Counted from the first letter of the stretch, positions 8,058 through 42,679 are shown. The stretch is DNA of 64,000 nt from an uncultured Anaerolineales bacterium (GCA_964478075.1 CAYZGO010000008.1:37284-101283); one strand, 5' to 3'. The notes: generated from the sequence alone by a model not told the origin. Program-made: numbers and translations.

Positions 8058-8146
8058 GTGCTCCGTCAAGCTCAAATTGAGGCCTTGTAGTAGCGACTTC
8101 AGTCGTCAGCCAAGCGGGAGAAGCGACTGAAGTCGCCACTACGAAC
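8058..8146. repeat. Palindromic interspersed element, copy 1 (REP/MITE-like family A)
   Basis: GAGGCCTTGTAGTAGCGACTTCAGTCG...CGACTGAAGTCGCCACTACGAAC. About 88% identical to copy 2 at 28506-28594, including a shared 5' flank GTGCT(C/G)CGTCAAGC. Confidence 0.75.
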
Positions 8147-8155
8147 GAATCAGTG

Positions 8156-8404
8156 CTAGACCTTGCGGCCCATGGCTTGCAGCATAGCCTTGCGCACGGC
8201 CTCGCCAATGTTAATGTCATCCAGAAGGACGATCTGGTCACAGCGCAAAGTGGCATTTAGAAGTGGGTGCTTGCGTAGCGTCCGAGACACGACGTAGACA
8301 AGCAGTGCTGTGTACGAAGCTCCGCGCCGGGCTGTTTCTGCCTCGCTCATGTCCACTTCAATCGTCAAGGCAATGTGGGGTGCCTCTCGCACGCTTTGCT
8401 GCAT
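8156..8404 (-). pseudogene. Fragment of a 2-oxoacid dehydrogenase E2 acyltransferase catalytic domain
   Basis: 82 aa. HIALTIEVDMSEA...LRKHPLLNA matches the start of the E2 catalytic domain but terminates after about 70 residues. No lipoyl or E3-binding parts are present. It abuts repeat copy 1. Confidence 0.55.
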
Positions 8405-8491
8405 GCGCTATCTGACTGCGAGCCAGCGGGTGGAAGCAATGTACGAAGTGAGGTTTTCCCCTTTACGTGCGGCTCGCTGCAAGGACAAGAT

Positions 8492-9481
8492 CTACAAGAT
8501 ACAGGGTATGCTTTCCCCGCATGAGGGACACTCGCTCAGAGGCGTCAGAAGATTTCGCCGCATGGTGTACGAGGAACGCTCGATCAGCAGTTGGCCGCAG
8601 GAAGGACAGTATGTGTTCTGGCTGGGGTGACCCTGAACGTTGCCCAGGTAAGGATAGGCCAGCCCTGCCTGTCGTGCGAGGTCATAAGCACGCTCCAACG
8701 TGCTTATCCGGGTGGGAGAAGCACGCATCTGGTGTGCTGGATGGTACCGTGTAAAGTGCAATGGCGTCTCAGAGCCTACAGTTTGCAAGTGACGGGTTAT
8801 CAGATCACGCAGTGCTTCCTGAGAATCATTGACGCCAGTCACCACCAGGTTCACGATCTCCACGTGCAATCCCATCTCTTTGGCCGCAGCCGCCGTCTCC
8901 CAGACCATTTCTCCATGCGAAGCAACACAGTATTCGCGATACACCTGTGCATTACCCTTCACATCAATCTTGATGGCATCCAGGCCTGCAGCTTGCAACT
9001 CCCGCAGGGTATCGAGCGTCATGTAACCATTGGACACATAGCAAGTGTACAACCCAACCGCTTTGGCCAGAGAAAAAGCGGCCAGGTTGTACTCGTGTAG
9101 CAAGGTTGGCTCAGTGAAACTGCAGCAAAGTCCCTGATCGCCAAGATGCAAAGCCATGTCCACCAAATCCTCTGGCGAGACGTACCTGGCCTGGACTTGC
9201 AAAGGGTCTGTGCGGCTCAAGTGCGAGTTCTGGCACCAGCGGCAGCGCAAGTTACATGAGTAGCTGCAGTAGGTAAGGGCAGTGGAGCCGGGGTGAAAGT
9301 GAAAGAAGGGTTTGATCTCTATGGGACGGCTTTCCAGAGCGGCTAACCGCCCGTAGACCACGCTCTGCAGATGCCCATGCACGTTGCGTCTCGTTCGACA
9401 GAAGCCGACATCGCGGGGTTTGATCAAGCAGCCACGGCGGCAGAGAGAGCATTGGAGCACATCCTTAGAAGCGGCACTCAT
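8492..9481 (-). CDS. Radical SAM enzyme (PFL-activase-like; N-terminal Cys-rich motif resembling AmmeMemoRadiSam-type enzymes)
   Basis: CNLRCRWC (CX3CX2C) radical-SAM cluster. N-terminal CSLCRRGCLIKPRDVGFC motif. C-terminal CPSCG...CPSCG zinc-ribbon. Start placed at the ATG (MSAASKD) with a GGAGGT RBS. Confidence 0.75.
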   Translation of the reverse strand: MSAASKDVLQCSLCRRGCLIKPRDVGFCRTRRNVHGHLQSVVYGRLAALESRPIEIKPFFHFHPGSTALTYCSYSCNLRCRWCQNSHLSRTDPLQVQARYVSPEDLVDMALHLGDQGLCCSFTEPTLLHEYNLAAFSLAKAVGLYTCYVSNGYMTLDTLRELQAAGLDAIKIDVKGNAQVYREYCVASHGEMVWETAAAAKEMGLHVEIVNLVVTGVNDSQEALRDLITRHLQTVGSETPLHFTRYHPAHQMRASPTRISTLERAYDLARQAGLAYPYLGNVQGHPSQNTYCPSCGQLLIERSSYTMRRNLLTPLSECPSCGESIPCIL

Positions 9482-9632
9482 GGAGAACCTCCAGAATCGG
9501 CTACAGTATAGTTCATATTCTGACCCTTGTCTATCCACTCAACTATTGCTTGGCGGTTGCGATGTTGCAACTTGACCGGAATGGTGATATAATGTCAGCA
9601 ACGACCTGCAGTTTGAACCGTGAGGAGGGGCC

Positions 9633-10112
9633 GTGGGCGAGCCGGAGAAGCAAGTCATCCGTCAAAAGATTATGGGAGTGCTCTTGCGCCATGCTCGGCT
9701 GAGGGCAGGGAGAAGTCAGGCCGAGTTGGCTGCCGCGCTGCGCATCTCCAGGTATCGCTACGGGCAATACGAGCGCGGACAACGCGACATCTCGCTGCCA
9801 GAGTTGGAGATCGTTGCCGACTTGTGCGGCGTGCCGTTAGGCTACTTCTTTGACGACAGAGCCACAGTGGAGGATGAGGGCACGGATAAGCCCTCCTTGG
9901 TCGCGCTTTGTATCCAGCGCAAGATTGTGGGCACACTACTGCGCCAGGCTCGACGGCAGGCAGGCAAGTCACAGAAAGAGTGTGCCGCTTTGCTGGGCAT
10001 CTCCCAACAACGTGTCTCTCTGTACGAGCGTGGAGAACAGGACATGCCCTCGTCTGAACTCGAGGCCCTGGCCCCCTATCTGAATGTGCAGCCCAGCTAC
10101 TTCGCGGTCTGA
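9633..10112 (+). CDS. Transcriptional regulator with two tandem XRE-type HTH domains
   Basis: Two HTH_3-like repeats (LRHARLRAGRSQAELAAAL... and LRQARRQAGKSQKECAALLGISQQRVSLYERG). GTG start with a GAGGAGGGG RBS. Confidence 0.75.
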   Translation: MGEPEKQVIRQKIMGVLLRHARLRAGRSQAELAAALRISRYRYGQYERGQRDISLPELEIVADLCGVPLGYFFDDRATVEDEGTDKPSLVALCIQRKIVGTLLRQARRQAGKSQKECAALLGISQQRVSLYERGEQDMPSSELEALAPYLNVQPSYFAV

Positions 10113-10175
10113 GCAAGACGGTCAGCGGACTAGGCAGATTGAGCGGATGTCAGTGACTTGTGCACGAAGTAATAG

Positions 10176-10208
10176 AAACGGCCACTGCTGAGGAGCAGTG
10201 GCCGTTTT
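10176..10208. terminator. Bidirectional rho-independent terminator between convergent genes
   Basis: AAACGGCCACTGCTG-AGGAG-CAGTGGCCGTTTT, with an A-tract on one side and a T-tract on the other. Confidence 0.6.
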
Positions 10209-10226
10209 GCTATGGCTGGCAAGTGA

Positions 10227-12293
10227 TCAGCCCTTCTCTTCGTTCTTGCCCTGCTCAATGACGTTCTGTGTGATGTGAGTAGGGACTTCATCGTAACGTT
10301 CGAACTCCATGGTGAAGTAGCCACGGCCCTGTGTCATGGAACGTATGTCGGCAGCGTAGTGCTGCATTTCGGCCAATGGAACCTCGGCGCTGATTATACT
10401 GTTGCCCTTTTGCTGGTCCATGCCCAGGACTCGCGCGCGTTTAGTGTTCAAGTCCCCCAGTATATCGCCCATGAATTGCTCAGGCACAACGATCGTTACT
10501 TTCATGATGGGCTCAAGGAGCACCGGGGCTGCCATCTCCATGCCCTTCTTGAAGGCCAGGTGCGCCGCCAGCTTGAAGGCGATTTCCGAAGAGTCCACCG
10601 AATGGGACGATCCGTCGTAGAGGGCGGCACGCAGGTCGGTAGCGGGGTAGCCAGCCAGCATGCCCTTCGTTATAGCCTCGCGCAGTCCCTTTTCTACAGC
10701 CGGTATAAAGTTCCGTGGCACGTGACCGCCAAAGACCTCGTCCACAAACTCGAAGCCTGCGCCGCGTAGCAGTGGCTCGAATCGTATTCGGACATCACCA
10801 AATTGCCCGCGCCCGCCAGTTTGCTTCTTATGCCGCCCCTGAACCTGGACTGTCTTGGTGATCGTCTCCTTGTACGGCACCTTGGGCACAGAGGTGACAA
10901 CGCCTACACCAAACTTTTGCTGTAGACGCCTGACAGCGATATCAATGTGCGAATCGCCCATGCCCGAAATCACGGTCTCGTTGGTGTCCGCATCGCGGCG
11001 TACAATGAGTGTGGGATCCTCTTCCACCAGTCGTGCCAGGGCGGTGCCCATCTTGTCCAGGTCGGCCTTGGTCTTGGGACTGATAGCAGCGAAGGCTATG
11101 GGATGCGGAAAGACAATACCTGGCAGTACGATAGGATGGTCTTTGTCGCACAGTGTGTTGCCAGTGGTCGTGGCTTGCAGCTTGGCCACCGCACCAATGT
11201 CTCCAGCGATCACGTCCTTGGTTGGTGTCTGCTCCTTTCCAAGCAGGAAGAAAAGCTGGCCGATCCGTTCTTCTTCACCCTTGTTTGCATTTAAAACACG
11301 TGAATCGCTCTGGAGACTACCGGAGTAGACACGGAAGTAGGTGAGCTTGCCTACATAGGGGTCGGCCATGGTCTTGAAGACCAGAGCAGCCAGGGGGCCT
11401 GTCGGTGCGGCCACGACGGCTTCCTCGCTGTTATCCAGCACCTTCCTGGCTTTTGCCTCCGTGGCGGCTGGCGAGGGCAGGTAGCGCACGATGGCATCCT
11501 GCAGAAACGAGACGCCTATATTCTGAGTCGCAGAGCCGCACAGCACCGGCACGACTTTGCCAGAGGCCACGGCCATGGCTAGCCCACGGCAGATTTCATC
11601 CTCGCTGAGCTCTTCACCGTCGAGGTATCTCATGATCAACTCGTCGTCAGCCTCAGCGGCTAGCTCTACCATCTGTAGTCGCAGGGTCTGTGCTTGATCC
11701 TGTAACTCGGCCGGGACTTCGCTTCCCTTCTTTGCATCGCCGAGGTAGGCTTTCATCGTCAAGAGGTCTACCACGCCCTTAAAGTTGGCCTGGGAACCAA
11801 TGGGCAATTGCAAAGGCACAAAGTTGACATCGAATTTGGCTTTCATCTGCTCAAGAGTGCGTTGAAAGCTGGCATTTTCGCGATCCAGCTTGTTGATGAA
11901 AGCCATGCGTGGCAACTCTAGTTCGTCGGCATACTGCCATACCAACTCGGTGCCTACTTCAACACCTGATGCTGCGCACAGGACAACAATCACAGCGTCA
12001 GAAACGCGAATGGCCCCCTTAACTTCGCCTACAAAGTCAGCATAGCCAGGAGTGTCCAACAGGTTCACCTTGTGCCTCTCCCACTCCCAAGGGGTGACCG
12101 ATGCGTTCACCGAAATCTTGCGCCGGACCTCTTCCGGGTCGTAGTCGGAGACAGTGTTGCCTTCCTCAACCCTGCCAAGGCGATTGATTAGGCCAGCATT
12201 GTATAGCATAGCTTCGGTCAGGGAAGTCTTGCCCACCCCACTATGGGCGATGAGGCTGACGTTCCTCAGTTCCTCCACCGTGTAACTTTTCAT
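10227..12293 (-). CDS. Elongation factor G family GTPase (EF-G paralog)
   Basis: AHSGVGKTS G1 motif, EF-G domain order, about 690 aa. Start placed at the ATG (MKSYTVEEL) with an AGGAGGG RBS. The track's TTG at 12338 gives a 15-aa extension. Confidence 0.85.
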   Translation of the reverse strand: MKSYTVEELRNVSLIAHSGVGKTSLTEAMLYNAGLINRLGRVEEGNTVSDYDPEEVRRKISVNASVTPWEWERHKVNLLDTPGYADFVGEVKGAIRVSDAVIVVLCAASGVEVGTELVWQYADELELPRMAFINKLDRENASFQRTLEQMKAKFDVNFVPLQLPIGSQANFKGVVDLLTMKAYLGDAKKGSEVPAELQDQAQTLRLQMVELAAEADDELIMRYLDGEELSEDEICRGLAMAVASGKVVPVLCGSATQNIGVSFLQDAIVRYLPSPAATEAKARKVLDNSEEAVVAAPTGPLAALVFKTMADPYVGKLTYFRVYSGSLQSDSRVLNANKGEEERIGQLFFLLGKEQTPTKDVIAGDIGAVAKLQATTTGNTLCDKDHPIVLPGIVFPHPIAFAAISPKTKADLDKMGTALARLVEEDPTLIVRRDADTNETVISGMGDSHIDIAVRRLQQKFGVGVVTSVPKVPYKETITKTVQVQGRHKKQTGGRGQFGDVRIRFEPLLRGAGFEFVDEVFGGHVPRNFIPAVEKGLREAITKGMLAGYPATDLRAALYDGSSHSVDSSEIAFKLAAHLAFKKGMEMAAPVLLEPIMKVTIVVPEQFMGDILGDLNTKRARVLGMDQQKGNSIISAEVPLAEMQHYAADIRSMTQGRGYFTMEFERYDEVPTHITQNVIEQGKNEEKG

Positions 12294-12817
12294 CTGCCCT
12301 CCTGTGACCGATATAGTGGTTCGTGCATAGATTGCCAAACGTGTCTCACCGGATCATCGTATGAGAGGGGGAGCTTGAGTTTGGCAATCCGGTCGAGCGC
12401 CGTTCGTCGCGAGCGACGCCGTTCGCCCCGCAGGGGGGCGACCTCTCGTCTTTGTCGAGAGACAAAGGAGACACCCTGACGGGGAAGATGCTACGCGCGG
12501 ACGAACGGTTGACGCGGTACCTTGTAAGAACGCCCTGCAGAGTGACACGATGCCAGGGCGCACACTTTCAACGACGAGGCTATTGTATAACAGAACCGCA
12601 CAAATGTCAATTGAATTCCGTTTGCGGGTGCAGTTCACTTCTCGGGCGAACCCCCCTGGAGTCTCAGAAAACATGCTGAACGCCCTCCCGGAAGGCTTGG
12701 AAGGCGTTGTCGGCAGCGTCTGGGAGGGTCTGCTTGCCAAGGTGGCCCTTGTCCGATTGACAAAGGTCAGCGTTGTACGGATAATGTAGCCCAAAGATCA
12801 CTGATGAGGCGAGCCAC

Positions 12818-13924
12818 ATGATTCTTGGAACCCAGGGTAAGGGACAAAGCGAGGGGGGACTGAACCGCAGGGACTTTTTGCGGATGACGGCGGGGATGGC
12901 TATCGCCCTGCTGCTGCCAGGTTGTCGGCGCATTCCGCCATCTCAAGCGCCCTTGCCAACGCATACTGGCTTGCTAGAGACAGAGCGCTACAGAAAGAAG
13001 AGTCCGTGGAGGATCGGGCGCTCTGGCCGCGGTGATGTCACTTCCTGGATGGTCATGTTGAGCGCACACATTGAGTACGGCATCAAGGAGAAGTACAGAG
13101 ACCGCTTCAAAGACTACTTCTGTACCTCGGCCAACTGGGACCCCAACAAGCAGATCGAGGATATCAAGATCCTGCTGGCGGAGGGGATTGATCTGCTCCT
13201 GATTGACCCCATGGATCACGCAGTAGTCGCGGCGGGAGTGGAGGAGGCCATGAACGCCAGTGTCCCTGTCATCCTGGCCTCCACCAGGGTGCAGAGCACT
13301 CAGTATGTCAGTTGGGTGACCACAAACGAAGAAGAGCGCGGCGCTGCTTGTGCAGACTGGCTCTGCCGCTCCATCGCTGGTGGGCGTGTGGTTGTCGTTG
13401 TGAACATGCCTGCTAGTGGCGACAGCAAGGCGTGGTTGGTGGGAGTTCGTGGTCGGCTGGATGCCCAGCCTGAAGTGCAAGAAGTGACGGTGGCACACTG
13501 CCCTTGGTCATCACCTGGTGCCAGGCAGACTATGGCCTCCATGCTCAACGAATCTACGCAAATAGACGGTGTGGTTGTGAACAACGGGGTGCTGGGCCGG
13601 GGAGTAGTCGAGGCTTTCGCGGAACGAGGCAGCAGGATTCCGCCCATTGCCGGAGGCGATGACTGGAACGGTTGGCTGCGTACCGCAAAGGAACACAAGG
13701 TACGCTTCATGGGGCTCAGCGGGGGGGCGAATCTGGGTCTACGCTGCGTTGACCTGGCAATCCGAGTGCTGGCCGGCGACCCCGTTCCGCGCTGTGTGGA
13801 ATTCCCGTACGAGGTATTCGATGAGAGCACGTTAGACCGCTACTATCGCCCCGACTTGAGTGACCATTATTGGGCAGTCAACGACCTGCCTGAGGCATGG
13901 ATTCAAAGGATGTTCAAGTTGTGA
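12818..13924 (+). CDS. Periplasmic sugar-binding protein (PBP type I) with a Tat signal
   Basis: RRDFLRMTAGMAIALLLPGC twin-arginine/lipobox-like N-terminus and a ribose-binding-protein-like fold. Consensus-like promoter TTGACA-N17-GATAAT upstream. Confidence 0.7.
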   Translation: MILGTQGKGQSEGGLNRRDFLRMTAGMAIALLLPGCRRIPPSQAPLPTHTGLLETERYRKKSPWRIGRSGRGDVTSWMVMLSAHIEYGIKEKYRDRFKDYFCTSANWDPNKQIEDIKILLAEGIDLLLIDPMDHAVVAAGVEEAMNASVPVILASTRVQSTQYVSWVTTNEEERGAACADWLCRSIAGGRVVVVVNMPASGDSKAWLVGVRGRLDAQPEVQEVTVAHCPWSSPGARQTMASMLNESTQIDGVVVNNGVLGRGVVEAFAERGSRIPPIAGGDDWNGWLRTAKEHKVRFMGLSGGANLGLRCVDLAIRVLAGDPVPRCVEFPYEVFDESTLDRYYRPDLSDHYWAVNDLPEAWIQRMFKL

Positions 13925-13960
13925 TCAGGTGGATGTTGCCCCTTCGTTCATGTGGAAATC

Positions 13961-14011
13961 GTAGAGACGTAGCCTCACCTTGCGGTGAGATTACACATGC
14001 TACGTCTCTAC
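13961..14011 (+). repeat. 51-nt nested-hairpin element, copy 1 (family B)
   Basis: GTAGAGACGTAGC CTCACCTTGCGGTGAG ATTACACAT GCTACGTCTCTAC. A 13-bp outer stem encloses a 6-bp inner hairpin. Copy 2 is at 30645-30695. Confidence 0.7.
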
Positions 14012-14094
14012 TTGGATACACCCTCTGCCAGGTATATCGTTAGCCGCTTTGGTGAATTAGTGATATAATTGCGAAAAGTTGTGGAGGGGCCAAG

Positions 14095-15804
14095 ATGCTT
14101 CTTGAAGAGCTAATTCAAGCCGCACGAGGCGAGGTAGAGGTTGACCTGCTGCTCAAGAATGCGCGCCTGGTAAACGTATTCTCCGGCGACATCCACCACG
14201 CTGATGTGGCTGTCCACCGCACGCGCGTGGTGGGGTTGGGCAACTATCGTGCACGCAAAGTGATTGACCTGCAGGGACAATACCTGTGCCCCGGCTTCAT
14301 AGATGGGCACGTGCACATTGAAAGTTCCATGCTTCGCGTCTCTGAATTCGCCAGAGTAGTCGTACCCCAGGGTACAACCACTGTGATCTGCGACCCCCAC
14401 GAGATTGCTAACGTGCTTGGGCTGGATGGCATTCGCTACATCTTGGACTCCAGCAAGTACAATCCCCTCAGTGTGCACGTCATGTTGCCTTCCTGCGTCC
14501 CTGCCACAGACATGGAAACGGCGGGCTCTAAACTCGGGGCTGGGGACATAGCTGCCATGTTGCGTAGTGACTGGGTGCTCGGCTTGGGCGAAGTAATGAA
14601 CTACCCCGGCGTGATATTTCGTGATTGGGAAGTGCTGCAAAAGATCAAGGTAGCAGCCGACAGGCCGATTGACGGACATGCGCCTGGCCTGTCGGGGCGG
14701 GATCTGTGCGCCTACGTCGCGGCGGGCATTGGTTCAGATCACGAGTGCACCACAATGGAGGAGGCGAAAGAAAAGCTGCGACTGGGCATGCATGTCATGA
14801 TCCGGGAGGGCACGGTTGCCCGTGATTTGGAGAGCCTTTTGCCCCTGGTCACGCCCAGCAATGCAAGCAATTGCATGTTCGTGACCGATGACCGGCATCT
14901 TCCAGACTTGGTGAACGAAGGACACATAAACTTTGCCGTCCGCAAGGCGATTGGCCTGGGTCTGAATCCAGTGACCGCCATACAGATGGCGACCATCAAT
15001 ACAGCGCGCTATTTTGGCCTCAAGGACAGGGGCGGTATCGGGCCCGGCATGCGCGCCGATTTGGTCGTCTTTGACAATTTTGCCGATTTCAACATCAAAA
15101 TGGTCTTTCGGGGCGGACAGTTGGTGGCGCAAGATGGCAAACTGCTACCTCTGGAGCAGAAGCCGAAAGATGTCCCCTTGCGCAGCTCGATGAATGTCAA
15201 TTGGCAGAATGTGGATGATCTGAGAGTGCCGGCCAAAGGCAGCCGGATGAAGGTTATCGGCCTCATACCAAACCAGCTTGTGACGGATAGCCTCTTGGAA
15301 GAAGTCAAAGTCGAGGATGGCTTCGCCGTGGCGGATGTGGAACGGGACATTCTAAAGATAGCAGTGATCGAACGCCACCTCGCTTCGGGGAACGTAGGAC
15401 TGGGCTTCGTCAAGGGCTTCAAGCTCAAGCGCGGTGCGCTGGGTTCCTCTGTAGCACACGACTCGCACAACCTCATCCTGGTGGGGACCAACGACGAAGA
15501 CATGCTGCTTGCAGCACACGAGATAGAACGCATGCGCGGCGGGCTCGTTGCTGTAGAAGGGGGACGTGTGCTGGCCTCACTTCCGCTGCCCATCGCCGGA
15601 TTAATGTCGGATCGTCCATATGAAGAGGTAAATGAAAGACTAACCACACTACTAGCTGCAGCACACGGATTAGGTTCGGGGTTACACGATCCCTTCATGG
15701 CTCTGTCTTTCCTTGCGCTGCCCGTTATCCCCTCGCTGAAACTTACGGACAAGGGCCTGGTAGACGTCACACAGTTCAAGCTCGTGCCACTGTTCGAGGT
15801 CTGA
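14095..15804 (+). CDS. ade: Adenine deaminase
   Basis: 569 aa. LKNARLVNVFSG...PGFIDGHVHIESSM and overall length are typical of Ade. GGAGGGG RBS. Confidence 0.88.
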   Translation: MLLEELIQAARGEVEVDLLLKNARLVNVFSGDIHHADVAVHRTRVVGLGNYRARKVIDLQGQYLCPGFIDGHVHIESSMLRVSEFARVVVPQGTTTVICDPHEIANVLGLDGIRYILDSSKYNPLSVHVMLPSCVPATDMETAGSKLGAGDIAAMLRSDWVLGLGEVMNYPGVIFRDWEVLQKIKVAADRPIDGHAPGLSGRDLCAYVAAGIGSDHECTTMEEAKEKLRLGMHVMIREGTVARDLESLLPLVTPSNASNCMFVTDDRHLPDLVNEGHINFAVRKAIGLGLNPVTAIQMATINTARYFGLKDRGGIGPGMRADLVVFDNFADFNIKMVFRGGQLVAQDGKLLPLEQKPKDVPLRSSMNVNWQNVDDLRVPAKGSRMKVIGLIPNQLVTDSLLEEVKVEDGFAVADVERDILKIAVIERHLASGNVGLGFVKGFKLKRGALGSSVAHDSHNLILVGTNDEDMLLAAHEIERMRGGLVAVEGGRVLASLPLPIAGLMSDRPYEEVNERLTTLLAAAHGLGSGLHDPFMALSFLALPVIPSLKLTDKGLVDVTQFKLVPLFEV

Positions 15805-16793: not shown

Positions 16794-16825
16794 CCTTGCC
16801 TCCACTCTCTGGGAAGGAGACGTTG

Positions 16826-16960
16826 CCCCGCCAAATAGATGGCGGGACGCTACCGCAGCCCCGCCAAATAGATGGCAGGACGCTACCGCAGCCCCGCCAA
16901 ATAGATGGCGGGACGCTACCGCAGCCCCGCCAGAAGGACGGCGGGACCTCCGGCATGCAA
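16826..16960. repeat. Tandem array of about 4 units of 33 nt (CCCCGCCAAATAGATGGCGGGACGCTACCGCAG)
   Basis: Direct head-to-tail copies seen in the sequence. Each unit contains the palindrome CCGCCA-AATAGA-TGGCGG. The reverse complement is related to the 60-nt units at 18410-18560. Confidence 0.8.
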
Positions 16961-16965
16961 CGTCT

Positions 16966-17886: not shown

Positions 17887-18759
17887 TCAGTGAGGTCTGA
17901 AAACGTGGCTCACTTGCTGATAGCGCATAGGCCGTGCGTTGCCGCGTGAGCATCGTCGAGCAGCGACGGTTTCTAGCAGACCAAGCAGTCTGGCCAAGGT
18001 TTGCGGCGACAGCACAGTGCGCTCGGGTTTATCGCCACCGTCGGCGCGCAGCCATTGGCTGTAGTCGGCGCAAGCTCGGGCATGATAGTGGAAGATGCAA
18101 CCTTCCACGCCAGAGATGAGAAGCGCTAGGCTCATAGGCTCCACCGAATAGGGGCAGATGGCAAAGAGGACGCGGGTGAAGCGCCGTTCCTCCAGGGCAG
18201 GTAATAGAATGTCGTGGGCGATGTCCAGGGCAGAGGTGAGCACAGCAAAGCTAGCCCCTGCTCTGAGCGCCGCGTGGCCAAGGATACGAATAGAGCAGTC
18301 AGTACAGGCTGGATGGAATTGCACTTCGCTTCTGGAATCGAGTTCCAAACGAGAGAGGTACAGACAGTCGTGGTCAAAGCGCCCTGCCGGACAGTCGTAG
18401 CCGCTGCCGGCTGCGCTAGCGTCCCGCCGTCTGCGGAGTCCCGCCATGTCTTGGGCGGGATTGGGCGGGGCTGCGCTAGCGTCCCGCCGTCTGCGGAGTC
18501 CCGCCATGTCTTGGGCGGGATTGGGCGGGGCTGCGCTAGCGTCCCGCGATCTTTGGCGCGGGACCGCATGCAGCGGCTTTTGACAGAATCCCGTGCCCAC
18601 CAGTAGTCGTCCTCCATTACCAGCAGCACGCCTTACGAATTCATCTTCGCCGCCACGGAAAAGCAAGCGCTCCTCTCGCTGACCTGCTGTCAGAACTTGA
18701 CAGTAGGTCCAGAGGGCACGCAGCGTGCGCAGCGGATGGCGCAGGACGATGTGCCGCAT
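17887..18759 (-). CDS. Hypothetical Cys-rich protein containing in-frame tandem repeats (RDASAAPPNPAQDMAGLRRR, about 2.5 copies)
   Basis: Long ORF. The C-terminal part has several Cys/His motifs (CPAGRFDHDC, ACTDC, CPYS). The N-terminal extent is uncertain because the track ORF overlaps the divergent Rph-like gene. The start chosen leaves a 130-nt divergent promoter region. Confidence 0.4.
   Translation of the reverse strand: MRHIVLRHPLRTLRALWTYCQVLTAGQREERLLFRGGEDEFVRRAAGNGGRLLVGTGFCQKPLHAVPRQRSRDASAAPPNPAQDMAGLRRRRDASAAPPNPAQDMAGLRRRRDASAAGSGYDCPAGRFDHDCLYLSRLELDSRSEVQFHPACTDCSIRILGHAALRAGASFAVLTSALDIAHDILLPALEERRFTRVLFAICPYSVEPMSLALLISGVEGCIFHYHARACADYSQWLRADGGDKPERTVLSPQTLARLLGLLETVAARRCSRGNARPMRYQQVSHVFRPH
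18410..18560. repeat. Tandem array of 60-nt units (about 2.5 copies), related to the 33-nt array in reverse complement
   Basis: GCTGCGCTAGCGTCCCGCCGTCTGCGGAGTCCCGCCATGTCTTGGGCGGGATTGGGCGGG repeated. CTGCGCTAGCGTCCCGCC matches the reverse complement of the 33-nt unit in 20 of 22 positions. Confidence 0.8.
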
Positions 18760-27822: not shown

Positions 27823-28506
27823 ATGTTAGATGAAGACAAGGGTCAAGTAGCAGCAAGTAGCGACGCGCAGAAGGCCCAGCCTGTGCCCGAGCCAGCCGTG
27901 GACGAGAAGGCGGAAAAGAGTGCGGCAAAGCCGGAAGAGAAGCCAGCGGACATCAAAGCTCTTCAGCAAGAGCTCGAGAAGCAAACAGAGTTGTCCAAGC
28001 ATCACCTTGATCAGTGGAAACGCACGGCTGCGGGTCTGGAGAACTATCGCAGGCGCGCGGAGAAGGAACGCGAGGAACTGCTTAGGTTTGGCGATGCAGT
28101 TTTGATCACAAAGCTGCTCCCTGTACTGGATGATTTCGAACGGGCTTTTCAGACTGTGCCGGCAACGCTCAGCGACTTTACCTGGATAGAAGGTGTGGCT
28201 CTCATTGAGCGCAAGCTGCGCTTGCTTCTGGAGCAGCAAGGCCTGAGGGAAGTTGATGCTCTTGGTAAGCCATTTGACCCCAAGTTCCACCAGGCTGTCC
28301 TGCAGGAAGAAAGCACTGCTTATCCCGACGGCTATATAGTCGCTGTCCTGCAAAAGGGCTACACGCTACATGATAGAGTGCTGCGTCCTGCTATGGTGAA
28401 GGTAGCAAGGAACGAACAGGGCGGCAAGACCGTGGGCTCGGCAGAGGCAGAAGGAAACGCCCCTGCCACTGACAAGGAAAAGGAAGATGAATCCAGAACC
28501 GAATAG
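27823..28506 (+). CDS. grpE: Nucleotide exchange factor GrpE
   Basis: LEKQTELSKHHLDQWKRTAAGLENYRRRAEKE... GrpE core. AGGAGG RBS. Start placed at the ATG (MLDEDKG). The track ORF is extended upstream through the hrcA 3' end. Confidence 0.88.
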   Translation: MLDEDKGQVAASSDAQKAQPVPEPAVDEKAEKSAAKPEEKPADIKALQQELEKQTELSKHHLDQWKRTAAGLENYRRRAEKEREELLRFGDAVLITKLLPVLDDFERAFQTVPATLSDFTWIEGVALIERKLRLLLEQQGLREVDALGKPFDPKFHQAVLQEESTAYPDGYIVAVLQKGYTLHDRVLRPAMVKVARNEQGGKTVGSAEAEGNAPATDKEKEDESRTE

Positions 28507-28594
28507 TGCTGCGTCAAGCCTAGCTCGAGGCCTTGTAGTAGCGACTTCGGTCGCCAAACAAGCGGGAAAAGCGACTAAAGTCGCCACTACAAAC
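28506..28594. repeat. Palindromic interspersed element, copy 2 (family A)
   Basis: Begins at the grpE stop codon. GAGGCCTTGTAGTAGCGACTTCGGTCG...CGACTAAAGTCGCCACTACAAAC. Confidence 0.75.
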
Positions 28595-28652
28595 TAGCTA
28601 GACTGATATTGACGGAGCAGCAGTCAAGTAGTCCATTTCTGGGAGGATATGC

Positions 28653-30610: not shown

Positions 30611-30644
30611 CGCGCCCCAGTTTCCAGATGTTCCTGCGCCAGTT

Positions 30645-30695
30645 GTAGAGACGTAGCCTCAGCTTGTGGTGAGATTACACATGCTATGTCTCTAC
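30645..30695 (+). repeat. 51-nt nested-hairpin element, copy 2 (family B)
   Basis: 48 of 51 positions identical to copy 1. One of the three substitutions converts a G-C pair into a G-U pair, valid only in a plus-strand transcript. Confidence 0.7.
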
Positions 30696-33803: not shown

Positions 33804-33842
33804 CACTGCTCACGGGGCTTTTGCCCCCTAGATTGGAGTTCT

Positions 33843-36692: not shown

Positions 36693-36705
36693 AAGGAAGC
36701 GCACT

Positions 36706-37167
36706 CTAAAGTGCCGCAACTGGGACTGTGTCAGATTGAACCGGTGGCGGAGGCGGGACTTGGGCTGGGGTACGGTCGTTAGTCAGCTTCCACGAGATGA
36801 GTTCCAGCATGGTAATCAATTGAAACGGTTTGAGGATAACCGGGGCGCCGGTGGCGTTCAAGAAACGTTGCGTCGCCAAATTGGCAATATCCCCGGTGCA
36901 GAAGATAACCCGCTTGCTCAAACCAGGATACGAACTGCACAGTTGACGATAGAATGCCTCCCCACCCATAACTGGCATTCTGATGTTAGTGATAATCAAG
37001 ACATAGTCCTGAAGAGACACTTTCTCCAGGGCCACTTGGCCGTTGCTAGCCATGTCAACATCATACCCTGCGATTCTCAGCACACGAGCCAGGATATCGA
37101 GGATATCCTGCTCATCGTCAACGATAAGGATTTTGCTTGGCACGGATGCACGGCTGGATTCACTCAT
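36706..37167 (-). CDS. Stand-alone response-regulator receiver (REC) domain protein with a Pro-rich C-terminal tail
   Basis: ILIVDDEQDILDIL...DYVLIITNIRMPVMGGEAF CheY-like fold residues. No output domain. Tail PAQVPPPPPVQSDT. GAAGGA RBS. Confidence 0.8.
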   Translation of the reverse strand: MSESSRASVPSKILIVDDEQDILDILARVLRIAGYDVDMASNGQVALEKVSLQDYVLIITNIRMPVMGGEAFYRQLCSSYPGLSKRVIFCTGDIANLATQRFLNATGAPVILKPFQLITMLELISWKLTNDRTPAQVPPPPPVQSDTVPVAAL

Positions 37168-37192
37168 TGATCTGATCCTTCAACGGCCTCGG

Positions 37193-37408
37193 CTAGAACC
37201 ACTCGACTTCGTGTTCGTTCATCCACACAATAAGCTGCTCAGCGAACTGCTCGATGGTCGCAGCCCTTATAGCTGCAATGCCCCCGAGTTCGTTGGCTTC
37301 CAGGTTGAATTGAGCGAGCGCCCTCTTTGGGTTGTTCAAGAGTGTGCTACGGAAGCCATCATCAATGACTGCTGTGCCAATGATCTGAGAGAGAGATGCG
37401 GTCGTCAT
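37193..37408 (-). CDS. Small protein (71 aa) with an NHLP/Nif11-like leader-type N-terminal segment
   Basis: DDGFRSTLLNNPKRALAQ resembles the nitrile-hydratase-leader-peptide family motif (D-AFR-RLLADPKAVLAE) as I recall it. ELGG precedes a 26-aa C-terminal segment with no Cys. AAGGAG RBS. Confidence 0.6.
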   Translation of the reverse strand: MTTASLSQIIGTAVIDDGFRSTLLNNPKRALAQFNLEANELGGIAAIRAATIEQFAEQLIVWMNEHEVEWF

Positions 37409-37422
37409 CGTCCACTCCTTTC

Positions 37423-38037
37423 CTATGAGCTGTGTTTACTTTTGGATATGCTCTCTGTAGGACCAGCAGGTGAATGCTGCCCCAGCATAGCGCTTTGTAT
37501 GAGAAAGAAGGCTCCCAGAGCAACGAGCACGTCGCCAACGCTGAAGACACTAGGCACAGGAAAGGGTCTGGGCAGCACAAAAACATCAGATAAAAGCCAC
37601 AGCTTTGTCTCTTGTGGCGATAGGAGCATGTTTTTGCTGCTGTAGATGCGCATACCGGATGCCAGAGATGGTACGAGACCGGCATGTCCCACTTTGATGA
37701 GGGCCTCCGGTGTAATGGGCATCCAGCCACCATTGGTGACCATCACTACGAGATTCAGCAGCAGGCCCAGCCCGATTAGCCTCACGCCCTCAAGATGGCG
37801 GTTGGCCCACACTGTAACCAACAGGAGCAGGTGGGAGCCCACGAAAATCAACTCTTGCCAGCCCCAGACGCCGATAGCCTTGCGTGAAGGTGTCTGGTAA
37901 ATGAAAAGTGCCTGGGCAGCAAACGCTACCACCGCAAGTGCACCACAACACAGTGGCACCGCTGCCAGTCCGTTGAATCGTCCACCTCGTAGCAATCCAA
38001 TGACGATCGAAACGACAATGGCAGCTACAAGGATCAT
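37423..38037 (-). CDS. Integral membrane protein (4-5 TM; NGGWMPI motif; possibly DUF5317-like)
   Basis: Hydrophobicity pattern; no catalytic motifs recognised. Family assignment is from memory only. Confidence 0.55.
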   Translation of the reverse strand: MILVAAIVVSIVIGLLRGGRFNGLAAVPLCCGALAVVAFAAQALFIYQTPSRKAIGVWGWQELIFVGSHLLLLVTVWANRHLEGVRLIGLGLLLNLVVMVTNGGWMPITPEALIKVGHAGLVPSLASGMRIYSSKNMLLSPQETKLWLLSDVFVLPRPFPVPSVFSVGDVLVALGAFFLIQSAMLGQHSPAGPTESISKSKHSS

Positions 38038-38090
38038 CTTAGATCGAGTCTACCAGATAATCCTATCGGAATACCAAGTGCAGGCAAGGC

Positions 38091-38234
38091 CTAGGGGCCG
38101 GCTGGGCCGCCACCGCCAAAGCACTCAGGAGCACCGCTGCCGAGCACCAGCGCCGTGATGACCAACAGGGCCCAAATCAGACGCACAGTGTTGGCGCTCG
38201 TGAATTTGCAGACTGTAGGTAGCCACTTCTTCAT
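38091..38234 (-). CDS. Unannotated small membrane peptide (47 aa): MKKWLPTVCKFTSANTVRLIWALLVITALVLGSGAPECFGGGGPAGP
   Basis: Not in the ORF track (under 60 aa). ATG preceded by a strong RBS GAGGAGAGG at 4-nt spacing. Single TM helix, Gly-rich tail, two Cys. Lies 53 nt upstream of the membrane-protein gene. Coordinates are hand-indexed. Confidence 0.5.
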   Translation of the reverse strand: MKKWLPTVCKFTSANTVRLIWALLVITALVLGSGAPECFGGGGPAGP

Positions 38235-38432
38235 TTGTCCTCTCCTCTCTTGTTGCTGGCTGCATAGTTACCCACATAGATTGCGCAGCTATCATTTATA
38301 CGTAAATTATAACACAGCCTGCTTTCGGAAGTGCTTACATAGGTGCTTACGAGAGGCCGCTAGAATAGAAAGAGGGCCACCACGTAGGTAAGCCCTCTTT
38401 GCTGCCTAGATGCACGAGCCAAGCACGACGTG

Positions 38433-41400
38433 CTAGCCTGGTGCGATCTTGTCCTGCAGGATTTGCTCATAGAGTGCGGTGGTCTCCAGGGCCGGGTCGG
38501 CTCCGAGTTCCTTTTCCAGGAGTTCGGCAAGCTGATGGTAGCTCCTGAGAGCTGCGTTGCGCTCGCCCAGCAGCGTCTGGCAGAGCATGATTTCTCTGTG
38601 TGCGCTTTCCTGGTAGCTGTCCTTTTCCACCACCTTCTCATAGAAGCGCATCGCTTCCCGGTAATCTCCTTGGGCGACGTAGTATTCCCCTAGGCGCTGC
38701 AAAGCCAAGAGGCACTTCTGGAGCAAGTCCTCCCTCTTAAACAGGCACCACTCAGGACTTGCCGCAGGGGCCTCAAGGAAATCCCCCCGATACAGGACTA
38801 CCGCGTCCTTGTAGTGTTGTATGGTCTTGGAGCGGTCAGTGGTCCAGGCCGATGTCGCCTTATTGATGGCTTCCTCGAACTCCTCCACGTCGAACCAGTA
38901 GTTGATACGACGATTGAAGAAATAGTGATCGTCCTCGTATTCGACACAATCTTGTTGAGCGAGAGCCCGGCGAAGTCGGTAGAGCGCCACGTGGAACGAA
39001 GACCGCAACTTGGCTGGCGATAACTCCGGCCACAGATCGTTGCCAATCTGATCCTTGCGGCGCTGCTTATGGCACAAAAGGTAGAAGAGGAGCTCTTTTG
39101 ACTTGGCCATGCCCCACTCGGCGTTCGTAACCAGCTTATCTCCCCTCAAGACCCTGCTTTCACCGAAGGCATAAACGCGCAAGAGAGGCTGAACGGCGGC
39201 GGGTTCTTGTTGGGCCAAGACTTCTGAACCAGGTGCAGCGGGAGCTGCTACTTTGCGCAAGAGGTGACCGATGAGAGTATCACCCATGCCTCTGGCCGTA
39301 GCGTATTCCATCACCAGCTTCGTCTCCCTGACTGCTGGCAGGAGAAACTGGTCGTAGCCCAGTTCTAGTAGGCAGTCCAGTAGTGCTTGTATGCAGTCGA
39401 GTGCTTCCTGAAACCGGCCAGCGACATAGTAAGCCTGTGCCAGATAGAGGGTCGCTTTGGCTAATTCTCTCTTCGCGTCGCTGCGCACAAAGATATCGCG
39501 GGCCTGCGACAGGTATTGCTCTGCCTGTCTGATATTACCTTGCTGGTAGCTGATGACTCCCAACGAAATCTGATACAGCCCCATTTCATAAGCAGAGTCC
39601 CGTTCTTGCGCCCTCTCGTAGGCTTGACGCACAAAGTCAATCGCCAGAGCATCGTTGCCCATCAGCCGATGTGTATTGCCAATGGCATCCAGTAGATAAC
39701 AGATGATGAAAGCTTCTCTCGACTGTCGCGCTGCCTGTAGTCCTTCTTCGTAGGCTTTGAGGGCTTCTTCGTATGCGCCCTGATCTCTGTGGATATCGCC
39801 AATGCCAGCCAGGATGAAGGCCGTGACGCGATCCAGGCCTGCCTTTCGTGCCTGATTAAGACCATCCTCGTAGAGCTGGAGGGCCTCAGCGTACTCGCCG
39901 CGGTAGTAGTGGCCGACAGCGATGTTGTTGATAATCAATGCCACTAATCCTACGTTTCCTTTCTCTTTCCAGATTTCGAGCGCTTGACGAAAGTGCAGTT
40001 CGGACCCTGCCAGATTGCCGGCAAGTCGAAGGATAACCCCGAGTTGGTTGTGCACGTAACCGATATTGTTTACGTATCCCATCTGCTCGTACATGCTGAG
40101 TGCACGCCGCAATTCCTCCTCGCCTTCGGACAGATTGCCCAGACGCGCCTGGCAGGTACCAATCTGGGTGTGAGCGGATGCAACAACTTGCATAACGTCC
40201 GTCTGTTCCTTGGCACCCTGTACAAGCGAGATAGCCTGCTTGCACGCGTCTATGGCCTCTCTGAACTCGCCCTGAAAGCGTAGGACAGCGCTCTTCTCTA
40301 CCAGTGTTTGGGCCTGTCCCAGATGATCGCCACGGTGAGCAAATTCGGTGTATGCGCGGTCAAAGAGAGCGGCCGCCTGGTCCAACTCGCCAACCTCGGC
40401 ATGTATCTTGGCCCTGAACCACAACAGGCGCGGCCTGACCTGTACCATGTCCGGAGGCAATGCGTCTATCCAATATGCCAGGGTTTCTAGCTTGCCAGTG
40501 TCATAGGTCTCCCGAGCTATCTCCAGTATGGCTTTCACAGCGCTGTCGTAGTCTTTGCCCGTCAGGTAGTGTTGTATGGCTTTCTCAACTGCGCCACTTT
40601 CATGCAGCAGCCTGGCGGCGCGCAGGTGCAATGGGCGAACTTGTTTTGGCTTTCCTTCCTGGAGTTTGGTCAGAAGAAACTCGTGGAACAGATGGTGATA
40701 CCTATACCATCTTTCCTCTTCCCTCTCCAGCCTGCTAACAAACAGGATTTTCTCCTCCAGCAGCTTCAGCGTCTCCCGAGAGTTGCTTACTCCGAGGAGT
40801 TCGTCACACAGCAGAGGGCTCATCTCCTCGAGTATGGAAGTGGACATCAGGAAATCTCGCAAGGTAGGAGGTTGCTGGCTGAACACTTCGTTGGCCAGGT
40901 AGTCATAGACCTTGCTGTCAGAGCCTTGAATACGGATGATGCCCTCGAAGAGGCCCTTCCACATTGTGTGCGTGGTTAGCAAGATGCCGGTGATCCAGCC
41001 TTCTGATTTCTCGGCAAGCTCCTTGGCTGCTTCGTCTGGAAGGCGCTGGCCATAGTTCTGCAGGAGCAGCGCCTGAATCTCCTCAGGGGTGAATCTCAAG
41101 TCCTCAACGCCCAGCCCTGCGATCTCCTGGCGGGCAGTGAGTAACGCCAGTCCACGAGGGGTCAGTGTAGGGACCGTGCGACTGGAGATAATAAAGTGGC
41201 AGTTCTCAGGCAGGTGCTGGACCAAAGCATCCAGCATCAGGTTGACTGCCCGGCTGTTATCAACGAGGTGATAGTCATCAATCACTACGACAAAGTAATC
41301 AGGGATCGTCTCGTAAATCTCATTGACGAGAGAGCCAACGAGCAATGTAGGATCAGATAGTTCTTCGCCAGCCTGAAGCAGCCTTCGAGAGCTCTGCCCG

Positions 41401-41684
41401 AACTTGGGGAAATGCTGGCTGATGGCAGCAATTAGATAGTCCAAGAAGACGCGCGGGTCGCGAGCGGACTCAACAATGGAAAGCCAGCACACGGGCAGGT
41501 CGGTATCGTAGGCATAATCAATGAGCAAAGACGTCTTGCCATAGCCGGCCGCGGCCGAAATGAGCAATAGCTTTCGGTCAATGTGCTCGTGTACAAAGTC
41601 AACGAGCCGTGGCCGATGCAGCAGATTGGCGCGCTTCCTAGGAGTAAGTATTTGAGTTATGATCAACTGGGGAGGGGTGGCCAT
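38433..41684 (-). CDS. Large STAND-type NTPase regulator: N-terminal AAA/NB-ARC-like ATPase, central TPR array, C-terminal SARP-type winged-helix plus BTAD domain
   Basis: ISAAAGYGKTSLL P-loop near the N-terminus. Multiple TPR-like repeats in the middle. The C-terminus (RVYAFGESRVLRGDKLV...ELLFYLL...YRGDFL) is an OmpR-like wHTH plus bacterial transcriptional activator domain. Terminator hairpin AAGAGGGC...GCCCTCTT downstream. Confidence 0.8.
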   Translation of the reverse strand: MATPPQLIITQILTPRKRANLLHRPRLVDFVHEHIDRKLLLISAAAGYGKTSLLIDYAYDTDLPVCWLSIVESARDPRVFLDYLIAAISQHFPKFGQSSRRLLQAGEELSDPTLLVGSLVNEIYETIPDYFVVVIDDYHLVDNSRAVNLMLDALVQHLPENCHFIISSRTVPTLTPRGLALLTARQEIAGLGVEDLRFTPEEIQALLLQNYGQRLPDEAAKELAEKSEGWITGILLTTHTMWKGLFEGIIRIQGSDSKVYDYLANEVFSQQPPTLRDFLMSTSILEEMSPLLCDELLGVSNSRETLKLLEEKILFVSRLEREEERWYRYHHLFHEFLLTKLQEGKPKQVRPLHLRAARLLHESGAVEKAIQHYLTGKDYDSAVKAILEIARETYDTGKLETLAYWIDALPPDMVQVRPRLLWFRAKIHAEVGELDQAAALFDRAYTEFAHRGDHLGQAQTLVEKSAVLRFQGEFREAIDACKQAISLVQGAKEQTDVMQVVASAHTQIGTCQARLGNLSEGEEELRRALSMYEQMGYVNNIGYVHNQLGVILRLAGNLAGSELHFRQALEIWKEKGNVGLVALIINNIAVGHYYRGEYAEALQLYEDGLNQARKAGLDRVTAFILAGIGDIHRDQGAYEEALKAYEEGLQAARQSREAFIICYLLDAIGNTHRLMGNDALAIDFVRQAYERAQERDSAYEMGLYQISLGVISYQQGNIRQAEQYLSQARDIFVRSDAKRELAKATLYLAQAYYVAGRFQEALDCIQALLDCLLELGYDQFLLPAVRETKLVMEYATARGMGDTLIGHLLRKVAAPAAPGSEVLAQQEPAAVQPLLRVYAFGESRVLRGDKLVTNAEWGMAKSKELLFYLLCHKQRRKDQIGNDLWPELSPAKLRSSFHVALYRLRRALAQQDCVEYEDDHYFFNRRINYWFDVEEFEEAINKATSAWTTDRSKTIQHYKDAVVLYRGDFLEAPAASPEWCLFKREDLLQKCLLALQRLGEYYVAQGDYREAMRFYEKVVEKDSYQESAHREIMLCQTLLGERNAALRSYHQLAELLEKELGADPALETTALYEQILQDKIAPG

Positions 41685-41693
41685 ATCCCTTGT

Positions 41694-41710
41694 TTGTCAA
41701 TGTGTGACAA
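41694..41710. promoter_or_regulatory. Palindromic operator-like site TTGTCA-ATGTG-TGACAA between the regulator's -10 region and its start codon
   Basis: Perfect 6-bp inverted arms, 10-26 nt upstream of the regulator ATG. Confidence 0.35.
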
Positions 41711-41790
41711 GTGTTTGATGTTACTCTCCTATGATTATAACACAGTACTTTGGCAAAAGCCAGTGAGCAGGCACTCTAGAAAACGGCAAA

Positions 41791-41818
41791 TTGACATGCC
41801 GCTCCATTGTCTTATAAT
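41791..41818 (+). promoter_or_regulatory. Consensus sigma-70 promoter for the DUF2085 gene (TTGACA-N16-TATAAT)
   Basis: Exact -35 and -10 hexamers. This places the track's alternative start at 41807 inside the promoter. Confidence 0.55.
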
Positions 41819-41827
41819 GCGAACACC

Positions 41828-42565
41828 GTGGAATCCCCCTTCTTGCAGGCACATGGTCTACTTAGATGCATTGGACTGTTTCTGAGCGGCGTCTGCGGTC
41901 AGTTGCCAGAGCACTCGATTTCTCTCGCTGGTGTGCAGACCCCATTATGTGCACGCTGTACGGGGACCTATCTGGGAGCATTGCTGGGGTTGTGTAACTT
42001 CTGGCTAAGAGGTCGTTCCCGTGCTAGCCGGCTGCCGCCAGCGAGAATGCTGGCCGTGCTGGGCCTGTTCTTTGTCTTTTGGGTCATAGATGGTCTAAAT
42101 TCCTATCTACACTTCTTTCCTGGCGCCCCGTGTCTTTATTCCCCTAGCAACTTACTGCGGCTGACAGCGGGTATGCTTAATGGAGTGTCCTTGAGCTTTC
42201 TGGTTTTCCCCATGTTCAATTTCACCCTTTGGCGAGAGCCAAGCAAACAACGTGTCGTAGACAGCTTTGGGGAACTGGGAAGGATCTTGGTGCAGGTCAT
42301 AGGACTCGAGATCCTGTTGCAAGCCCGCATAGGGGCACTGCTCTATCCCTTGTTCCTTGTGGACATTATGAGTGTTCTGTTGGTGCTCACCATAGTGAAC
42401 AGCATGATAGTGGTCATTCTTCTACGTTGGGAGAATCGTACTGAGGGCTGGACGCAGGCGCTGCTTCCTCTCAGTCTGGGGTTCTTGCTCTCAGTTGCCG
42501 AGGTAGGGGGCATTGCCTTGCTCCGGGCCGTGCTAGGGGGTGCCCTTGCGTCACCAAGTGGGTGA
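41828..42565 (+). CDS. DUF2085-family membrane protein (CxxxC...CARCTG motif)
   Basis: GVCGQLPEHS...PLCARCTGTYLG matches the DUF2085 signature. Start uncertain (GTG at 41828 or TTG at 41843) because the track start lies inside the promoter. Confidence 0.6.
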   Translation: MESPFLQAHGLLRCIGLFLSGVCGQLPEHSISLAGVQTPLCARCTGTYLGALLGLCNFWLRGRSRASRLPPARMLAVLGLFFVFWVIDGLNSYLHFFPGAPCLYSPSNLLRLTAGMLNGVSLSFLVFPMFNFTLWREPSKQRVVDSFGELGRILVQVIGLEILLQARIGALLYPLFLVDIMSVLLVLTIVNSMIVVILLRWENRTEGWTQALLPLSLGFLLSVAEVGGIALLRAVLGGALASPSG

Positions 42566-42621
42566 GACGTTAGGCTTGCTTTGTCGGGCCGTGCATCTAG
42601 TCAATGTGAAGGAAGTCATTC

Positions 42622-42679
42622 GTAGTAGCGACTTTAGTCGCTCTTCCACCTGCTTGGTCACTGAAGCCGCTGCTACAAG
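42622..42679. repeat. Palindromic interspersed element, copy 3 (family A), diverged and in inverted orientation
   Basis: GTAGTAGCGACTTTAGTCGC...CACTGAAGCCGCTGCTACAAG. The arms match copies 1 and 2, and the loop matches their reverse complement. Confidence 0.55.

Follow-up and report, generated by a model that had tools for sequence, protein, structure and literature searches.

The stretch of DNA analysed here, 64,000 nucleotides from an uncultured Anaerolineales bacterium (GCA_964478075.1 CAYZGO010000008.1:37284-101283; hereafter the window), carries three copies of a short repeat, all of them intergenic. Copy 1 comes after a minus-strand remnant, 82 aa long, of the catalytic domain of a 2-oxoacid dehydrogenase E2; copy 2, upstream of dnaK, has its start at the grpE stop codon; and copy 3 lies between two convergent genes, a DUF2085 gene that ends at 42565 and a molybdopterin dehydrogenase gene that ends at 42745. 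An earlier note on this DNA had correctly placed the copies in these contexts and had seen in them a mobile element resembling REPs (repetitive extragenic palindromic sequences) or MITEs (miniature inverted-repeat transposable elements). That description was right and can now be made precise: the repeat is a doublet of GTAG-tagged REPs, relatives carry the cognate REP-associated tyrosine transposase (RAYT), and one insertion site is found empty. We consider it very probable that the copies are REPINs (REP doublets forming hairpins), which means non-autonomous mobile doublets of two head-to-head inverted REPs from the GTAG REP superfamily.

Of the 232 positions in the 2-oxoacid dehydrogenase catalytic domain, the 82-aa open reading frame (ORF; 8156-8404, minus) spans 20-103 only. 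It terminates (stop codon 8156-8158) within the right, diverged arm of copy 1, so that this copy sits where a gene remnant is truncated; a separate canonical intrinsic terminator is found beyond the copy, at 8040-8011. Relative to the local transcript copy 1 is antisense, copy 2 is sense and copy 3 stands between convergent genes, a mixture of orientations as expected for a DNA-level element. In related loci (cited below by L numbers) 30% of the REP arms lie inside mechanically called ORFs of at least 150 aa, versus 80-82% of random positions.

That the three copies are real follows from the 19-nt arm motif GTAGTAGCGACTTCAGTCG, which, with 3 mismatches allowed, has five matches in the window, all of them within the three sites named in the earlier note, and 0.00 in dinucleotide shuffles. 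Between copies 1 and 2 an ungapped alignment extends over 90 nt (8057-8146 versus 28505-28594); the similarity is high, but at 86% it stays slightly below the roughly 88% initially given. Copy 3 had been described as inserted in the opposite orientation, and it is indeed a reverse-complement match (28565-28593 versus 42619-42647, 29 nt, 90%), its minus strand aligning with copies 1 and 2 across the spacer and the 5' extension. The size of 68-88 nt proposed before covers a part of the element, but by a profile of the three copies (nhmmer E 1e-34 to 3e-37) and by the empty site the homologous unit has about 125 nt.

Inside this unit every REP of the window is a 20-nt arm made of GTAG and two bases, followed by a stem of 5 bp (GCGAC/GTCGY) with TTYA as its 4-nt loop. 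The consensus of the family, for which GTAGTRRCGACTTYRGTCG can serve as the pattern, is an unpaired GTAG, 2-3 bases, a 5-bp stem RCGAC/GTCGY and a TTYA loop. Six such arms in three doublets are present in the window, where 0 are expected by chance; all six start with GTAG, and a doublet measures 56 nt from the outer GTAG to the outer CTAC. The degenerate REP of copy 3 has 4 mismatches to the family consensus and a weakened stem. Around the doublet there are arms of about 30 nt, imperfectly complementary to each other, which in copy 2 read TAGTGCTGCGTCAAGC ... TTGACGGAGCAGCA. As each REP arm forms a small hairpin at whose base GTAG stays unpaired, it qualifies as a GTAG-tagged REP, and the pair as a head-to-head dimer (PMC3733652). 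Folded as single-stranded DNA, the 125-nt unit of copy 2 forms one long hairpin (z -4.6 and -5.4), and the individual REP hairpins reach -2.4 and -4.5 kcal/mol. The coordinates are collected in Table 1.

Table 1. Positions of the repeat units, their REP arms and two further features, counted from the first letter of the window
Feature	Coordinates	Strand	Details
Copy 1, full unit	8056..8180	+	profile match 8052-8180, nhmmer E 3.4e-37; outer left arm CAGTGCTCCGTCAAGC, REP doublet, diverged right arm
Copy 1, left REP	8087..8106	+	GTAG-TA-GCGAC-TTCA-GTCGT
Copy 1, right REP	8123..8142	-	GTAG-TG-GCGAC-TTCA-GTCGC
Copy 2, full 125-nt unit	28504..28628	+	profile match 28501-28629; empty sites in L230/L231
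Copy 2, left REP	28535..28554	+	GTAG-TA-GCGAC-TTCG-GTCGC
Copy 2, right REP	28571..28590	-	GTAG-TG-GCGAC-TTTA-GTCGC
Copy 3, full unit, inverted	42585..42711	-	profile match 42711-42585, E 1.2e-34
Copy 3, intact REP	42622..42641	+	GTAG-TA-GCGAC-TTTA-GTCGC
Copy 3, degenerate REP	42657..42676	-	GTAG-CA-GCGGC-TTCA-GTGAC; fuzzy match
Candidate decayed fourth copy	~600..690	+	shares TGCTCCGTC with copy 1 arm
AFOR-domain protein (PF02730/PF01314)	813-2642		

The structure that is maintained in this family is the small hairpin of each REP. An alignment of 65 elements, drawn from the window and from 62 loci, has GTAG and CTAC unchanged in all 65, and in it the small left hairpin shows changes on both sides in each of its 5 pairs (for example ACGGC/GCCGT, ATGAC/GTCAT, GCGAT/ATCGC or GCCAC/GTGGC), with 96.6% of the cells paired. 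Its covariation score is 0.134 versus 0.084 +/- 0.006 for shuffled alignments, and 0/500 shuffles reach this value. In the sample anchored on the opposite arm the partner stems are ACGAC/GTCGT (18), GCGAC/GTCGC (13), ACGGC/GCCGT (5) and GCGAA/TTCGC (4), all self-complementary. It is thus a sound conclusion that compensatory changes preserve each 5-bp REP hairpin. The element had been called palindromic before, and imperfect long arms do exist, but the compensatory changes do not appear to extend to arm-to-arm pairing: for the long helix the covariation in the 65-sequence alignment is not above shuffles (0.092 versus 0.098), a negative which is weak because each search pattern fixed one arm. 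Covariation at the level of the hairpin fits a protein that recognises each REP hairpin and not an RNA that needs the long stem.

One insertion can be read directly from the spacer between grpE and dnaK, which has 146 nt in the window and 21 nt in two fully syntenic, more distant relatives (L230 and L231, DnaK 91% and 89% identical). The ancestral 21-nt spacer, TCCATTTCTGGGAGGATATGC, is recognisable and intact beside dnaK, downstream of copy 2, and so copy 2 is an insertion of 125 nt exactly at the grpE stop, present or absent as one block; no REPs of this family were found in L230 and L231 over 14 and 22 kb. Among named DnaK proteins, those closest to the one of the window come from Chloroflexota and Anaerolineae. 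The triplet TAG stands at both junctions. The first one (28504-28506) is the stop codon of grpE, which in L230/L231 is TAA (9977-9979), and in the window it coincides with the first bases of the element; because of the repeated TAG the boundaries of copy 2 are ambiguous by 0-3 nt. The search for target-site duplications, suggested in the earlier note, has a divided outcome: the repeated triplet may, from the junction sequences, be a 3-nt duplication, but the left TAG is part of the palindromic arm in several members of the family, so that it need not be one. Copies 2 and 3 are retained in strain-level relatives (L130, 96.4% identical, and L229, 98.7% identical, the latter keeping copy 3).

The link to a transposase comes from related loci. 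A tblastn search with a RAYT query revealed, immediately next to the repeats of L007 and L087, ORFs which score 87.1 and 91 bits on the NCBIfam model NF047646 'REP-associated tyrosine transposase' (curated cut-off 80). The L007 protein matches E. coli TnpA-REP (PDB 4ER8) with E 7.5e-8 across some 100 residues, and the alignment takes in the HUH and catalytic-Tyr regions. The Pfam model Y1_Tnp matches the flanked genes weakly or not at all, and weak matching to it has been reported for RAYTs (PMC6006769). Homologues fall into 1357 clusters at E <= 1e-10; in some sources they are named 'putative transposase' or 'REP-associated tyrosine transposase', and the organisms named are Anaerolineales or Chloroflexota. 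Proteins of the clade measure about 200 aa and share a conserved extension, MPYEYR, at the N-terminus; NHYH and NYiHyNPvKHG are conserved over 117 homologues. Most of the homologues are on contigs of only 1-5 kb.

In all six contexts considered (L007, L087, L122, L123, L124/L125 and L126) REPs of the GTAGT-hairpin type stand on both sides of the RAYT gene, at about 6-110 nt from it. Those of L123 have altered stems (AAGGAC/GTCCT, AACCGC/GCGGT) with GTAG and the TTTA loop retained. Two of the 96 metagenome contigs described below (L217, L220) also have a RAYT gene adjoining REPs, which brings the independent loci of this kind to eight. By its sequence layout, a RAYT gene flanked by REPs is the REPtron arrangement of proteobacterial REP systems (PMC3733652, PMC6006769). 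When ORFs within 1.5 kb of the REPs were clustered for 120 loci of the genome scan, no shared neighbour protein was found except the RAYT pair.

The earlier note considered the element specific to this lineage, and for the REP core this was wrong. A genome scan for GCGACTNNAGTCGCYACTAC, one genome per species over 185,579 species, gave at least 120 stretches; about 100 of the matches listed are Chloroflexota (Anaerolineae, Anaerolineales, Caldilineales, Thermoflexia, Chloroflexia, Herpetosiphon, Promineifilaceae), and others among them are Brocadiaceae, Poribacteria, cyanobacteria, Latescibacterota and Acetothermia, the labels coming from metagenome-assembled genomes (MAGs) of which some are possibly mis-binned. 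Two different Brocadiaceae MAGs have one subfamily in common, and several MAGs have matches on 3-6 different contigs among those listed. Most matches share one architecture, GTAGTRACGAC-TTYA-GTCGTY, a spacer of 4-20 nt, and GCGAC-TRAA-GTCGC-YACTAC. A metagenome scan anchored on the opposite arm gave 96 contigs, with a clean inverted partner for about half of 103 distinct arms. The doublet length has its mode at 56 nt in the genome sample and modes at 52 and 56 nt in the metagenome sample; viral contigs with the pattern number only 2. Outer arms of the window type occur in L225, L170, L216 and L085. From these comparisons, the outer arms define subfamilies and the REP core is not lineage-specific.

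The REPs of this family are also met in other arrangements. Tandem arrays occur in L079 (7022-7772, period about 181 nt, 8 copies) and L050 (5539-5656, period 48 nt), and closely packed head-to-tail REPs in L211 (1429-1540). These loci made us consider a CRISPR-like or tandem array, a candidate that we rejected for the window, where the copies are solitary doublets of different organisation. In L073 (6722-7793) two nearly identical inverted REPINs bracket about 900 bp with two small ORFs of 75 aa and 117 aa, which we take to resemble a DUF433-type antitoxin and a PIN-like partner; this may be a REPIN-flanked cassette. In one MAG (DSDT01) the contigs L018, L058, L098 and L118 begin exactly at the element.

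From all this it would be logical to suggest the following mechanism. A single-copy RAYT, an HUH/Y1 tyrosine transposase presumably encoded elsewhere in the host genome, would bind each REP hairpin in single-stranded DNA, for example in the lagging-strand template, would read the GTAG at the foot of the hairpin, and would cleave and rejoin the strand, by which the doublet could be excised or copied and inserted into extragenic DNA. We infer this chemistry by homology with E. coli TnpA-REP (PDB 4ER8; PMC6006769) and with IS200/IS605 transposition, and the presence of a RAYT in this particular genome is presumed in the same manner, as would be any effect of the element on expression. As no U-tract follows the RNA hairpin of copy 2, such an effect would at most be stabilisation or processing of mRNA between grpE and dnaK, not termination.

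Several observations speak against the REPIN interpretation and have to be set beside it. No RAYT was found by tblastn with two clade RAYTs in the 64-kb window, nor in the adjoining 4.7 kb of L129, and only three good copies are visible in 64 kb. No insertion polymorphism was seen among contigs at 94-99% identity, copies 2 and 3 being present in all of them; fixed as they are in relatives at 96-99% identity, these copies do not point to recent activity. A cut-and-paste MITE would likewise have outer arms that look like terminal inverted repeats, as here, and TAG at both junctions, as in copy 2. To these the weak negative for the long helix and the possible mis-binning of MAGs, both mentioned above, should be added.

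The MITE just named deserves to be spelled out. According to this explanation the unit is a deletion derivative, of about 125 nt, of an insertion sequence (IS) of DDE type, moved via its outer terminal inverted repeats (TAGTGCYCNGTCA...TGAC.GAGCA) with a short target-site duplication, and the GTAG hairpins are incidental. Copy 2, L225, L045 and L088 do have complementary outer arms, and TAG is found at both insertion junctions, but the arms vary by subfamily whereas the internal REP pair is conserved over hundreds of loci; the left TAG belongs to the palindromic arm in several members, RAYT genes are flanked by bare REPs without outer arms, and in the clustering of ORFs near the elements no transposase recurs except the RAYT. 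We therefore hold a conventional MITE to be very unlikely. It would be slightly less probable still that the element belongs to the palindrome-associated transposable elements (PATEs) and owes its mobility to a TnpA of IS200/IS605 type, hence to an active multi-copy IS rather than to a domesticated single-copy RAYT, even though the chemistry would be the same in both cases and the apical stem-loop of the REP, CGAC-TTYA-GTCG, is also that of the subterminal hairpins of ISDra2. The genes flanked by REPs pass the RAYT equivalog model with weak or absent matches to Pfam Y1_Tnp (IS200-like), an IS200 TnpA query has no match in the loci, the RAYT contexts showed no TnpB partner, and the GTAG tag is a hallmark of the RAYT/REP systems (PMC3733652, PMC6006769).

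A structured cis-regulatory or small RNA, in which a GUAGU/ACUAC stem and two hairpins form a three-way junction serving mRNA stabilisation or termination, seems to us the least probable of these explanations. RNA folding was among the checks proposed in the earlier note, and its result is split: copies 1 and 2 fold stably (z -3.6 to -5.5), but copy 3 on one strand folds no better than shuffles (z -0.10). G-U pairs are present in the stems and positions downstream of genes are typical, but no Rfam gathering score is reached in the window, copies 1 and 2 are oriented differently with respect to transcription, the hairpins are not followed by a U-tract, the terminator after copy 1 is a separate one, and the presence or absence of the insertion and the association with RAYT are left unexplained. 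We rejected a known RNA family since a permissive Rfam scan gave sub-threshold generic hairpin models and a spurious CyVA-1 (RF02965, 15.6 bits versus a gathering score of 41.4), and an intrinsic terminator as well, there being no T-run after the hairpins. An RNA-level side-effect of a DNA element is possible.

Compared with known systems, the REPIN interpretation finds a close counterpart in the REPINs and RAYTs described for Pseudomonas fluorescens SBW25 (Bertels and Rainey 2011, PMC3116915): in both there are two inverted REPs with a short spacer, a unit of about 100 nt capable of forming a hairpin, extragenic dispersal, and a cognate Y1 transposase gene flanked by the same REPs, here in relatives of our bacterium. 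Unlike SBW25, the present family has another REP sequence, a shorter stem of 5 bp, a host from Chloroflexota and not from Gammaproteobacteria, and a RAYT clade of about 200 aa with MPYEYR. With the E. coli REPs, their bacterial interspersed mosaic elements (BIMEs) and TnpA-REP (RayT/YafM), it shares the GTAG placed 5' of an imperfect hairpin, the REPtron and the alignment of HUH and Tyr regions. The frequent pairing of an A-type arm (ACGAC/GTCGT) with a G-type arm (GCGAC/GTCGC) in one doublet recalls the Y and Z REPs of BIMEs. On the E. coli side the REP stems are longer and bulged, the protein identity to the clade RAYT is low, and the BIMEs carry linkers that bind IHF or gyrase.

The GTAG superfamily was defined by a terminal unpaired GTAG and stems of 5-13 bp, with head-to-head dimers, GTAG outside, predominating; some dimers lie within longer palindromes, Chloroflexi, cyanobacteria and the PVC group are among the hosts of its families, and REPtrons were described (Di Nocera et al. 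2013, PMC3733652). Published examples are GTAG-23 of Thermomicrobium roseum (Chloroflexi) and GTAG-15 of Anabaena variabilis, with dimers inside long palindromes; within Chloroflexi, GTAG REPs were reported for T. roseum only, where they are clustered (PMC3733652). The window family shares the traits listed for the superfamily, the comparison with the 24 published families being made by description and not by consensus sequence (PMC3733652). In the searchable literature we found no paper linking REPs or REPINs with Anaerolineae and none with this REP sequence in that context.

When the REP sequence itself was looked for in the literature, the only matches were primers and the end oligonucleotides of ISDra2 from Deinococcus radiodurans, ...GTGACTTCAGTCAT... 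for the left end and ...GCGACTTTAGTCGT... for the right end (PMC2806898). The tops of the ISDra2 hairpins, GTGAC-TTCA-GTCAT and GCGAC-TTTA-GTCGT, match the REP stem-loop almost exactly, and the ends of IS200/IS605 elements are alike in having subterminal hairpins recognised in single-stranded DNA by a Y1 HUH transposase. ISDra2, on the other hand, is autonomous, carries tnpA and tnpB between its ends and is without GTAG, whereas here we have a gene-less doublet and a transposase of RAYT type. The likeness fits the accepted kinship of RAYT/REP and IS200/IS605, and it could also be a coincidence; on the hairpin sequences, a specific link of this RAYT clade with an ISDra2-like IS200/IS605 lineage may exist.

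Some further repeats of the window should be recorded. The candidate decayed fourth copy of Table 1 has two degenerate inverted REP-like arms, 632-651 (+) and 666-685 (-), and is suggestive by eye, without statistical support (nhmmer E = 0.7). Just upstream of it, at 562-585, stands TTGGACTCTGGCG, identical to the outer-arm start (GGACWCYGGCG...) of another REPIN subfamily (L073, L105, L048), and it may be a remnant of this second subfamily. Another palindromic family of 66 nt has two copies, 13946-14011 and 30630-30695, 86% identical and both intergenic, one of them between dnaK and dnaJ. Its sequence, GTAGAGACGTAGC-CTCACC-TTGC-GGTGAG-ATTACACAT-GCTACGTCTCTAC, has a 13-bp inverted repeat that encloses a GTAG-tagged hairpin (GTAG-C-CTCACC/GGTGAG), and this may be another family of REPs, with a separate RAYT. 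Tandem repeats at 16825-16947 and 18409-18567 consist of 33-nt units, GCCCCGCCAAATAGATGGCGGGACGCTACCGCA, in at least 3 copies, with an exact 60-nt duplication; they are mutually inverted and bracket about 1.5 kb.

For the window itself the copies mean the presence of an ordinary, known class of selfish or domesticated repeat. There are nevertheless practical consequences, as such repeats appear to break metagenome assemblies, may be mistaken in scans for structured RNAs or CRISPR-like repeats, and can alter operons: here 125 nt with a stable hairpin were put between grpE and dnaK. To our knowledge, studies of REPIN-RAYT systems have been almost confined to Proteobacteria, and the present analysis adds a well-defined family, with its consensus, geometry, a RAYT clade of more than 1300 clusters and an insertion, in the Anaerolineae-type Chloroflexota, which are known mostly from MAGs.

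We may even suggest, tentatively and with more doubt than conviction, that one nearly invariant REP (GTAGTRRCGAC-TTYA-GTCGY) together with its RAYT clade is common to several classes of Chloroflexota, to Brocadiaceae, Poribacteria, cyanobacteria and others. If this is true, either the REP-RAYT recognition pair has been frozen while its hosts diverged very deeply or the system passes horizontally from one phylum to another, and the likeness to the ISDra2 ends would mark a recent link of an active IS200/IS605 lineage to this RAYT clade. In the prevailing picture REPINs and RAYTs form strictly vertically inherited, lineage-specific partnerships. Either outcome would modify that picture, and the wide sharing of one REP would make this family a test case for whether REPIN-RAYT inheritance is always vertical.

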